Positions 61,437 through 61,572 of a DNA stretch of 62,006 bases are shown here, piece by piece. Below the pieces are notes generated by a model that was given only the letters and a program-made list of their open reading frames with translations, made no database searches and was not told where the DNA came from. Both the position numbers and the translations under genes were made by a program. The DNA is from Candidatus Wolframiiraptor sinensis (GTDB lineage Archaea > Thermoproteota > Nitrososphaeria_A > Caldarchaeales > Wolframiiraptoraceae). Within the stretch, counting starts at the first letter, position 1, and each line of letters opens with the position of its first letter. The stretch lies in the NCBI GenBank assembly GCA_023261815.1, contig JALNKA010000004.1, forward strand, positions 1 to 62,006. Direction: 5' to 3'.

Positions 61437-61572
61437 AGGGAAAAAGAGGGTGGTGTCGGGGGAGGGGACATTTGGACAGCCCTTCGCCCGCCATTGCATA
61501 TTTCTCCACTCCCTTGCGGAGCCATATTTTAGGAACCACGGGCCTCATCAGGGCTTTAGTCCTGTCCCTCCG
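61437..61572 (-). ncRNA. Putative bridge/seek-type dual-guide RNA overlapping the transposase 3' end (copy C)
   Basis: GGGACA/TGTCCC stem, AGCCCT-GAT-GA / GA-AGGGCT K-turn-like junction, slots TTCCTAAAAT and AGAAATATGCA, apical GCTCC/GGAGT hairpin. Confidence 0.7.

Follow-up and report, generated by a model that had tools for sequence, protein, structure and literature searches.

Elements of the IS1111 type carry, downstream of their gene, a non-coding region in which short sequences match both strands of the target (Siddiquee 2024, PMC11187229; here and below, papers are cited for the passages concerned). In TIGR systems two spacers address opposite DNA strands, and the Nop domain of TasR itself anchors the spacer-adjacent motifs without L7 (Faure 2025, PMC12045711). 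The fold class concerned has been linked to Nop5, and box C/D small ribonucleoproteins (sRNPs) are described as derived from IS110/TIGR-like RNA-guided systems (PMC11213020, PMC12045711); in the data of Vaysset 2024, Nop5 descends from no archaeal IS110 clade (PMC11213020). A module of kink-turn (K-turn) and L7 distinguishes small nucleolar RNAs from tigRNAs and bridge RNAs (PMC12045711). In our literature search, which covered main texts, Vaysset et al. (PMC11213020) was the only paper to join bridge RNA and L7Ae, and the passages found there describe no K-turn in a bridge RNA. Here we analyse a K-turn-like motif in the RNA of a mobile element located at the end of a 62,006-nucleotide (nt) contig of the archaeon Candidatus Wolframiiraptor sinensis (GCA_023261815.1, JALNKA010000004.1; this whole stretch is referred to as the window).

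The element works like IS1111 elements with their seekRNA and like stem-loop tigRNAs, but it is neither a member of IS110 by sequence nor a TIGR array. As judged from its sequence, the RNA of the clade closest to the window copy is a real K-turn candidate in a new variant of IS1111/TIGR-like RNA-guided elements. We favour the reading, to which we give a probability of about 40%, that the motif is a K-turn-type kink in a target-seeking dual-guide RNA scaffold, and that host L7Ae would be its most likely binder, as an accessory.

A K-turn candidate at the base of a dual-guide RNA

On the minus strand, window positions 61555-61478 read AGCCCU-GAU-GA ... GA-AGGGCU, a stem of 6 base pairs (bp), next to which stand a bulge of 3 nt and the four letters that make up tandem G.A pairs. 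An earlier note on this DNA had described the motif with these letters and coordinates, which proved correct. It forms the P1/P2 junction of an RNA of ~135 nt directly 3' of the element's gene, and its start (61555) lies 7 nt within the 3' end of the minus-strand open reading frame (ORF) 61548-62006. In minus-strand order this copy (copy A) consists of AGCCCU GAU GA GGCCCGUGG, a 12-nt slot, GGCUCC GCAA GGGAGU GG, a 13-nt slot and GG CGGGC GA AGGGCU. The motif is followed by GUCCAAAUGUCCCCUCC, which pairs with the upstream GGAGGGACAGGAC, and by a pyrimidine tail with a terminal U-run (Table 1). The canonical (C) stem is directed outward and the non-canonical (NC) stem toward the guides, the motif being the junction of the basal stem with a 5-7-bp helix that leads to the guide loop. 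In single-sequence folding, copy A reached z = -2.66, and 0 of 200 shuffles folded equally well. A standard K-turn comprises a 3-nt bulge followed by G.A and A.G pairs, with a key role for A1n (Huang & Lilley 2016, PMC5061560), and the motif fits this definition as proposed.

Conservation within the close clade was assessed in an alignment (A2) of 24 copies, 15 from the genome and 9 from metagenome loci with proteins 68-81% identical. The alignment omits the 5'-truncated modules C14:3594 and C4:24690 as well as C13, whose inner hairpin contains a long insertion and which retains the K-turn letters. The bulge is 3 nt long in every one of the 24 copies. Its second and third positions (L2 = A, L3 = U) and G1b are likewise invariant, A2b, G2n and A1n are each kept in 23 of 24, and L1 is variable (G in 18, A in 5, U in 1). 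All four G.A letters occur in 22 of the 24 copies; the two remaining ones are decayed solo copies, at 23.8 kb in the window and at C14:9.1 kb.

The helices on both sides of the junction are backed by covariation. Of all cells in the alignment that should pair, 95.4% do so, compared to 40-49% after a shift of the 3' partners by 1-3 columns, and 7 pairs have changed on both sides. The C stem shows compensatory changes from AU to GC in C10 and from UA to CG in L031, and a pair of the NC stem covaries (UA 17, CG 6, UG 1). RNAalifold recovered the same helices without a supplied structure, and with it a purine-pyrimidine pair 3b-3n in 21 of 24 copies (GC 9, GU 8, AU 4). Two copies, C25 and L037, are fully canonical, with GA-G-CUG facing CAG-C-GA.

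The background rate of such a motif was estimated on shuffled sequences. A looser scan (C stem of at least 4 bp, NC stem of at least 3) matched 38% of shuffles, and a strict pattern (C stem of at least 6, NC stem of at least 5) was used instead. The strict pattern occurred in 41 of 3850 shuffled 340-nt sequences (1.1%). Of the 9 close metagenome loci, 7 have it at the homologous junction, and the remaining 2 carry an extra A.

An alternative register, with the first GA paired and a 4-nt bulge, was rejected. It has a strand polarity unlike that of a K-turn, and its first G is the position that varies (G18, A5, U1); this variation at L1 argues against any register using the first GA.

Table 1 Coordinates of the element copies and of the RNA features of copy A in the window.
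Feature	Position	Strand	Remarks
Element gene, 3' part, 152 codons plus stop	61548-62006	-	runs off the window end; full-length paralogue 303 amino acids
Dual-guide RNA scaffold, copy A	61438-61573	-	basal stem P0, C stem, K-turn-like loop, NC stem, guide loop with inner hairpin, pyrimidine tail
C-stem 5' strand AGCCCU	61550-61555	-	pairs with 61478-61483; 95.8% of cells paired; 2 compensatory pairs
Bulge GAU (L1-L3)	61547-61549	-	
G1b A2b	61545-61546	-	
NC-helix 5' strand: 3b G, extra purine, CCCG, UGG into guide 1	61536-61544	-	
Guide slot 1 (UUCCUAAAAUAU)	61524-61535	-	different in each copy
Inner hairpin GGCUCC-GCAA-GGGAGU	61508-61523	-	98.3% of cells paired
Guide slot 2 (AGAAAUAUGCAAU)	61493-61505	-	varies among copies
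NC-helix 3' strand CGGGC, then G2n A1n	61484-61490 (G2n A1n, 61484-61485)	-	
C-stem 3' strand AGGGCU	61478-61483	-	
U-run closing the pyrimidine tail of copy A	61441-61445	-	
Copy B, 567-nt solo element without gene	50200-50766	-	RNA ~50312-50447; K-turn letters kept
Copy C, decayed solo RNA module	23785-23902	-	3' strand UA-AGAACC; K-turn and C stem lost

Guide slots, insertion sites and the element's protein

The RNA is a target-seeking dual guide. Its two slots share a single internal loop and match the two halves of the insertion site on opposite strands. Both slots differ in every copy and their boundaries are constant; the pseudo-symmetry of these boundaries, which had been pointed out before, is real, as GUGR-U ... 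UGAUG flanks both slots. Three insertion sites were compared with the corresponding empty sites in relatives of the same genus. At all three the slots match opposite strands of the insertion-site halves, cleanly in two cases and approximately in the third, a truncated copy. These matches support the earlier assignment of the RNA to a mobile element with two programmable guide slots.

The empty site of the window's copy B, found in three relatives, reads AATAGG-TTT-AAGCCNTGG. Guide 1 of this copy is identical to the left flank AATAGGTTT and contains AAUAGGUUU in sense. On the right, the flank AAGCCGTGG pairs with guide 2 through 7 Watson-Crick pairs and 1 wobble, with 1 mismatch; TTT is present at both junctions. 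The 579-nt element on C23 (L011, G000:C23), the empty site of which joins TTCTAGAATT to AAGGATTGC, has a sense match of 10/10 for guide 1, an antisense match of 9/9 for guide 2, and AA at both junctions. In both elements guide 1 corresponds to the sense strand of the left half. In the 5'-truncated copy C5:34k (L009, G000:C5, 1499-1887), it is the right flank TAAGATCCC that guide 1 matches, in antisense, and the sense-strand resemblance of guide 2 is to the left half of the empty site, so that the same pairing holds with the element inserted the opposite way round. Flank matches suggest the orientation of C5:34k also for copy A, L034, L035, L036 and C4:36k. For an IS110-type recombinase whose core (TTT, AA) is not palindromic, insertion in either orientation would not be expected.

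A perfect complement of at least 8 nt to one guide is found 50-165 nt downstream in 15 of 23 copies, or in 13 of 21 independent ones, since L035 and L038 duplicate C14 and C18. The chance of a guide-flank match is estimated by arithmetic at ~0.04 per copy. For copy A, the complement of guide 1, ATTTTAGG, is located at 61412-61419, where homology to a paralogous locus starts. The right boundary of copy A is placed approximately at this start, and the left flank is beyond the contig end.

Two further observations concern copy A. Its right flank, 61224-61419, is paralogous to G000:C18:16675-16882 and has counterparts in five relatives; the flank begins at the TATA-like ATTTTAGG, continues with a GC-rich stem-forming stretch and resembles an unannotated conserved non-coding piece, for which Rfam gave no match. 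Guide 2 of copy A (GAGAAAUAUG, 61493-61505) shares a 10-nt identity with the element's own coding strand ~185 nt upstream (61730-61745, GEKY codons), and L034 and C5:19k have a similar guide 2. This match could be a case of self- or sibling-targeting, or reflect a default guide.

The sole full-length gene copy internal to a contig is on C12 (303 amino acids, P0001; G000:C12:672-1580). According to its structural model, the gene is predicted to encode a RuvC domain and a helical domain with a TasR/IS621-like fold. The AlphaFold2 model (43 sequences) has a predicted local distance difference test score (pLDDT) of 92, and its strands are confined to residues 4-117, the rest being helical. A Foldseek search against the PDB gave five hits at E <= 0.001, with template modelling (TM) scores of 0.55-0.59 over the whole length. 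These are two chains of TIGR-TasR 9mty (2e-6 and 5e-6; 9mty_B with a TM of 0.57 over 334 columns), IS621 8wt9 (9e-6) and 8wt6 (2.5e-5), and ISCro4 (9t56); no Nop5 chain was among the best 50 hits. A RuvC-like DEDD domain is present in the protein, as seen from the strand layout, the Foldseek matches to IS621 and ISCro4 and the invariant acidic residues D8, D45, D96 and D99 (E28 is nearly so). The "xSG" serine column is not conserved (S/N/G/Q), and S215 is nearly invariant. Since the model has no strand after residue 117 and the serine column is unconserved, the protein may be nearer to TasR than to a serine-using recombinase. Nop5 and Prp31, for their part, are without the beta-sheet that bears the catalytic serine of IS110 (PMC11213020).

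The protein has no Pfam or NCBIfam hit (E = 0.27 for the NCBIfam IS110 model NF033542). PF02371 had 0 matches in the genome, although across the phylum the same model detected IS110 genes in 2 of the 61 genomes. Neither the protein nor its profile A1 had a meaningful sequence match among PDB chains, and hhalign of A1 yielded probabilities of 1.1% against 3 archaeal IS110 proteins and 1.9% against host Nop5, values that come from thin profiles and are no evidence against distant homology. In a language-model atlas the protein adjoins archaeal "hypothetical" clusters and, at 0.93-0.94, clusters that partly carry PF02371/PF01548. The link to Nop-like proteins drawn earlier is supported by the model, which is closest to TasR and IS621, a fold class described as having a Nop-like domain in common (PMC12045711, PMC11213020). 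By sequence, the protein is not recognisable as an IS110 member.

The likeness to IS1111 elements and their seekRNA includes the non-coding region downstream of the gene and, in copy B, element ends with inverted CTCCTAGG/CCTAGGAG motifs. As with IS1111 seekRNA and IS110 bridge RNA (Durrant 2024, PMC11208160), 2-3 nt are common to both junctions and each lineage has a different target. In contrast to IS110, the protein is unrecognised by PF01548, PF02371 and NF033542, and beyond residue 117 its model lacks the beta element in which the catalytic serine of IS110 lies (PMC11213020). Unlike in IS110 bridge RNA, only one loop was found and a second, donor-binding loop was not, the 5' parts of the element having been searched less than exhaustively, and the elements occur in either orientation relative to the guide-target pairing. 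TIGR-TasR (9mty) is the best structural match of the protein, and with stem-loop tigRNAs the element shares two spacers of ~9-12 nt, short conserved flanking motifs, the targeting of opposite DNA strands and a pseudo-symmetric RNA, as expected for a dimer. It differs from TIGR in that its units form no tandem array, each gene having a single one beside it and at least 18, many solo, being dispersed; in that the guides match the element's own insertion site; in being located in an archaeal chromosome, whereas TIGR is found in phage or CPR bacteria; and in the K-turn candidate of the basal stem.

The junction in sister clades and the readings of the motif

The wider family comprises 90 protein homologues, all unnamed or "hypothetical", from Nitrososphaerota, Bathyarchaeia and Wolframiiraptor metagenome-assembled genomes, with further relatives in Geocrenenecus genomes. 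The homologues form 63 clusters among 1.84 billion representatives. We examined 89 loci; 77 have at least 200 nt after the gene and were kept, and 12 with fewer were left out. L028, whose match spans residues 5-109 only, was omitted. An RNA of the same architecture is present in 77 of 77 loci, which fall by BLAST into clusters of 43, 22, 9, 2 and 1.

In the 43-locus cluster the 5' strand reads CAA-GA in 35 of 43 loci, 40 loci have G at position 1n, 2 have C and L092 alone has A, and the junction folds as a 3x1 loop (AAG/G, 5' strand/3' strand) or as a 2-3-nt bulge. The junction of the 22-locus cluster is a 2-nt bulge, AC or AU. Overall, sister-clade junctions read AAG/G, AA/-, AAU/-, AC/- or AU/-, and the conserved feature of the family is a purine-rich 5'-strand bulge at the junction. 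Sister clades with only a 2-3-nt bulge on the 5' strand suggest that the conserved requirement is a bend, which would orient the basal stem relative to the guide loop for a dimeric protein, rather than a K-turn or L7Ae. The 43-locus cluster (L026, L050, L055 and 40 others) also has mirror loops, AAG/G in the basal stem and G/AAG in the inner hairpin, with 7 bp between either loop and a guide; this pseudo-two-fold symmetry suits a protein dimer. A K-turn considered for the inner hairpin of the same cluster (GCGA ... UUGAAG) was rejected, as its GA pairs canonically within a GAGCC/GGCUY stem that covaries (judged by eye).

In the favoured reading the junction would fold, in the close clade, as a protein-stabilised K-turn, and L7Ae, an abundant protein of the host, would fix the angle of the basal stem relative to the guide loop for a dimer of the element protein. 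The host encodes both L7Ae (128 amino acids) and Nop5, and use of L7Ae by the close-clade element is plausible from its sequence. Box C/D K-turns fold only with L7Ae (PMC5689011). The Watson-Crick or wobble pair at 3b-3n would place the motif in the protein-dependent class, as U4 and box C/D. With the 5' stem-loop of U4 small nuclear RNA and with box C/D K-turns, which are bound by L7Ae/15.5K, it shares a Watson-Crick C helix, the 3-nt bulge, the G.A and A.G pairs, L3 = U and the nature of 3b-3n. A predicted complex of protein residues 119-303 with host L7Ae, modelled without RNA, scored 0.00, which is not evidence either way; the contact of Nop5 with L7Ae depends on RNA.

Several findings weigh against this reading. 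Tandem GA is present at the same junction in only 10 of the 77 loci (by cluster 9/9, 1/43, 0/22, 0/2 and 0/1). Of these 10, 9 are loci of the clade with at least 68% protein identity to P0001, and L021, L025 and L020 have none there. Tandem GA is thus missing in 67 of 77 loci, for which reason L7Ae cannot be a general subunit of the system. The wider conservation that had been anticipated for the tandem GA fails at the family level, and the K-turn looks like a clade-specific candidate in these alignments and not like a family hallmark. Within the clade, copies are only 71-86% identical, and the conservation is partly shared descent. An extra A separates GA from the C stem in 3 of the 22 copies with all four letters (C14:603, L033, L035). 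Differences from the standard K-turn also concern the NC side, where a single extra purine after 3b interrupts the helix in 22 of 24 copies before it continues for 4-5 bp (C25 and L037 being without it), and the -1b:-1n pair, which is U-A rather than the common C-G. Finally, the inner hairpin, at the pseudo-symmetric partner position, shows no K-loop in the close clade.

It is possible, if somewhat doubtful, that the junction is a hinge read only by the element's TasR/IS110-like protein, or by none, with L7Ae uninvolved; the K-turn letters would then be the close clade's version of a bulge common to all clades. The 2-3-nt bulge at the same junction of the 43- and 22-locus clusters is in line with this, and so is the CAA-GA strand with 1n = G of the larger cluster, from which the K-turn consensus is one substitution away and where L092 alone has the A. 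Similarly, the mirror loop G/AAG, 7 bp from guide 2, suggests that each protomer reads "bulge + helix + guide", and the Nop domain of TasR does its anchoring without L7 (PMC12045711). A plain hinge, however, would need less than invariant L2 = A and L3 = U along with four G.A letters, the close clade has no mirror motif in its inner hairpin, and a consensus K-turn in an archaeal cell would be exposed to L7Ae. Chance resemblance, i.e., an ordinary asymmetric internal loop with no K-turn fold or specific role, we regard as very unlikely. Given a 5x2 or 6x2 loop, the four letters arise at about 1 in 256 by arithmetic, the RNA has several loops, the sister clades are without the motif and inheritance accounts for part of its conservation. 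Nevertheless, in the very copies that keep L2, L3 and the G.A letters, the slots, L1, 3b/4b and several stem pairs have changed freely, and the only 2 copies without the letters are otherwise decayed solo modules.

The opposite view makes L7Ae obligatory, with a composite surface formed together with the Nop-like domain as in box C/D, and the element a living intermediate between bridge/TIGR systems and C/D. We hold it to be distinctly unlikely, even though the orientation of the motif (C stem outside, NC stem to the guides) and the two pseudo-symmetric guides are C/D-like, the fold class is linked to Nop5 (PMC11213020, PMC12045711), and a family invisible to the IS110 models of Pfam and NCBIfam could answer the search for an unsampled archaeal clade, Nop5 having come from no archaeal IS110 clade in the Vaysset data (PMC11213020). 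The K-turn is confined to one shallow clade, which a recent gain fits better than an ancestral trait. The G.A pairs are ~7-9 nt from the guides rather than adjacent to them, the RNA is without box D, C'/D' motif or K-loop, and neither the low hhalign probability nor the best 50 Foldseek hits point to Nop5.

With archaeal box C/D sRNPs (L7Ae-Nop5-fibrillarin) the element shares the two guides, a candidate K-turn with a terminal C stem and the related protein fold class; on the other hand, the guides here match DNA flanks, the acidic RuvC residues are kept, and no fibrillarin link was found for the element. The likeness to box C that had been noted is in the wrong register. UGAUGA occurs in 17 of 24 copies. 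Of its two GAs the K-turn register takes the second, whereas in the archaeal C/D structure box C pairs via the first, and the 3' strand is YGAA, not the CUGA of box D. Neither a box D nor a C'/D' motif was found in the RNA, nor a GA motif in the inner hairpin, in the 24-copy alignment. The H/ACA outline did not hold either, since no more than 13 of 24 copies have ACA and the K-turn is situated beneath the guide pocket instead of above. A second role of the RNA, as a modification guide of the box C/D or H/ACA kind, is hardly credible. The UGAUGA hexamer and the ACA in the tail would point that way, but there is no CUGA box D and no C'/D' in an RNA of ~135 nt, the guides match DNA flanks on both strands, and the ACA is unconserved and outside the canonical spacing. 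A search of the whole window with Rfam at gathering thresholds returned 5 tRNA hits only, none at the locus.

A further reading would see here an extant archaeal RNA-guided DNA-targeting mobile element whose ribonucleoprotein (RNP) consists of a TasR/IS110-type RuvC-Nop dimer with host L7Ae on the K-turn of the guide RNA. This is unlikely as a whole; if true, it would be a living example of tandem-guide DNA-targeting RNPs acquiring the L7Ae/K-turn module of box C/D sRNPs. Even as a recent gain, the K-turn would be a natural test of plugging L7Ae into such an RNP, with the sister clades that lack it as built-in controls. The family itself is archaeal, invisible to IS110 models and has a predicted TasR/IS621 fold with a single tigRNA-like dual-guide RNA, one clade carrying a consensus K-turn candidate in C/D-like orientation. 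It is also a compact (303 amino acids, ~135-nt RNA), thermophilic and programmable DNA-targeting system, the natural targets of which can be read from empty sites. If the IS110 serine is truly absent, movement would proceed by neither bridge recombination nor TIGR defence. One possible route would begin with cleavage of the empty site through both guides and end in homing or microhomology capture, and such a route could also account for insertion in both orientations.

Copies of the element in the genome

The genome of 1.18 Mb is assembled in 33 contigs, of which the window is C33. The junction 15-mer AGCCCTGATGAGGCC has two further minus-strand occurrences in the window that differ by no more than 1 mismatch, 50414-50428 in copy B and 23868-23882 in copy C; the other 4 of its 7 matches in all have 3 mismatches, which is at chance level (3.71 expected). 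Copy B had been said to keep the motif, and its retained K-turn letters bear this out. Genome-wide, the RNA module was found at 17 sites by BLAST and at 1 more, on C10, by a regular expression; an additional match is listed at C9:196186-196308 (match only). The gene is present at only 8 sites, compared to at least 18 dispersed RNA modules, and many modules are therefore solo, copies B and C included.

Two modules lie near genes of box C/D proteins, one 1.3 kb from host nop5 (C9:58521-59195, C9:60481-60619) and another 7 kb from the L7Ae gene (C10:87946-88026, C10:95126-95404). Given a 1.18-Mb genome with at least 18 modules, this proximity is probably a coincidence.

Upstream of the gene, two unrelated types of 5' region were seen (L004 (G000:C12) 1-670; L034 1-346; L036 681-1200; set against the upstream regions of L030, L032, L035, L038). 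Type 1 is a very GC-rich block of ~500 nt, and type 2 an AT-richer block with a left-end repeat that is shared with the solo elements and is found at 50573-50707 of the window in copy B. On C9, an inverted left-end repeat (G000:C9:60726-60870) follows immediately after the RNA module, and two elements apparently meet at their tails within ~800 nt of sequence that is inserted in comparison with relatives.

In the RNA-library run X1, 5% of sampled words were present. Contigs from this run that are 85-95% alike span 61437-62006; being contigs of an RNA library, they cannot show transcription, ends or strand. One X1 contig of 344 nt covers the RNA and the end of the ORF, with a flank like that of L036.

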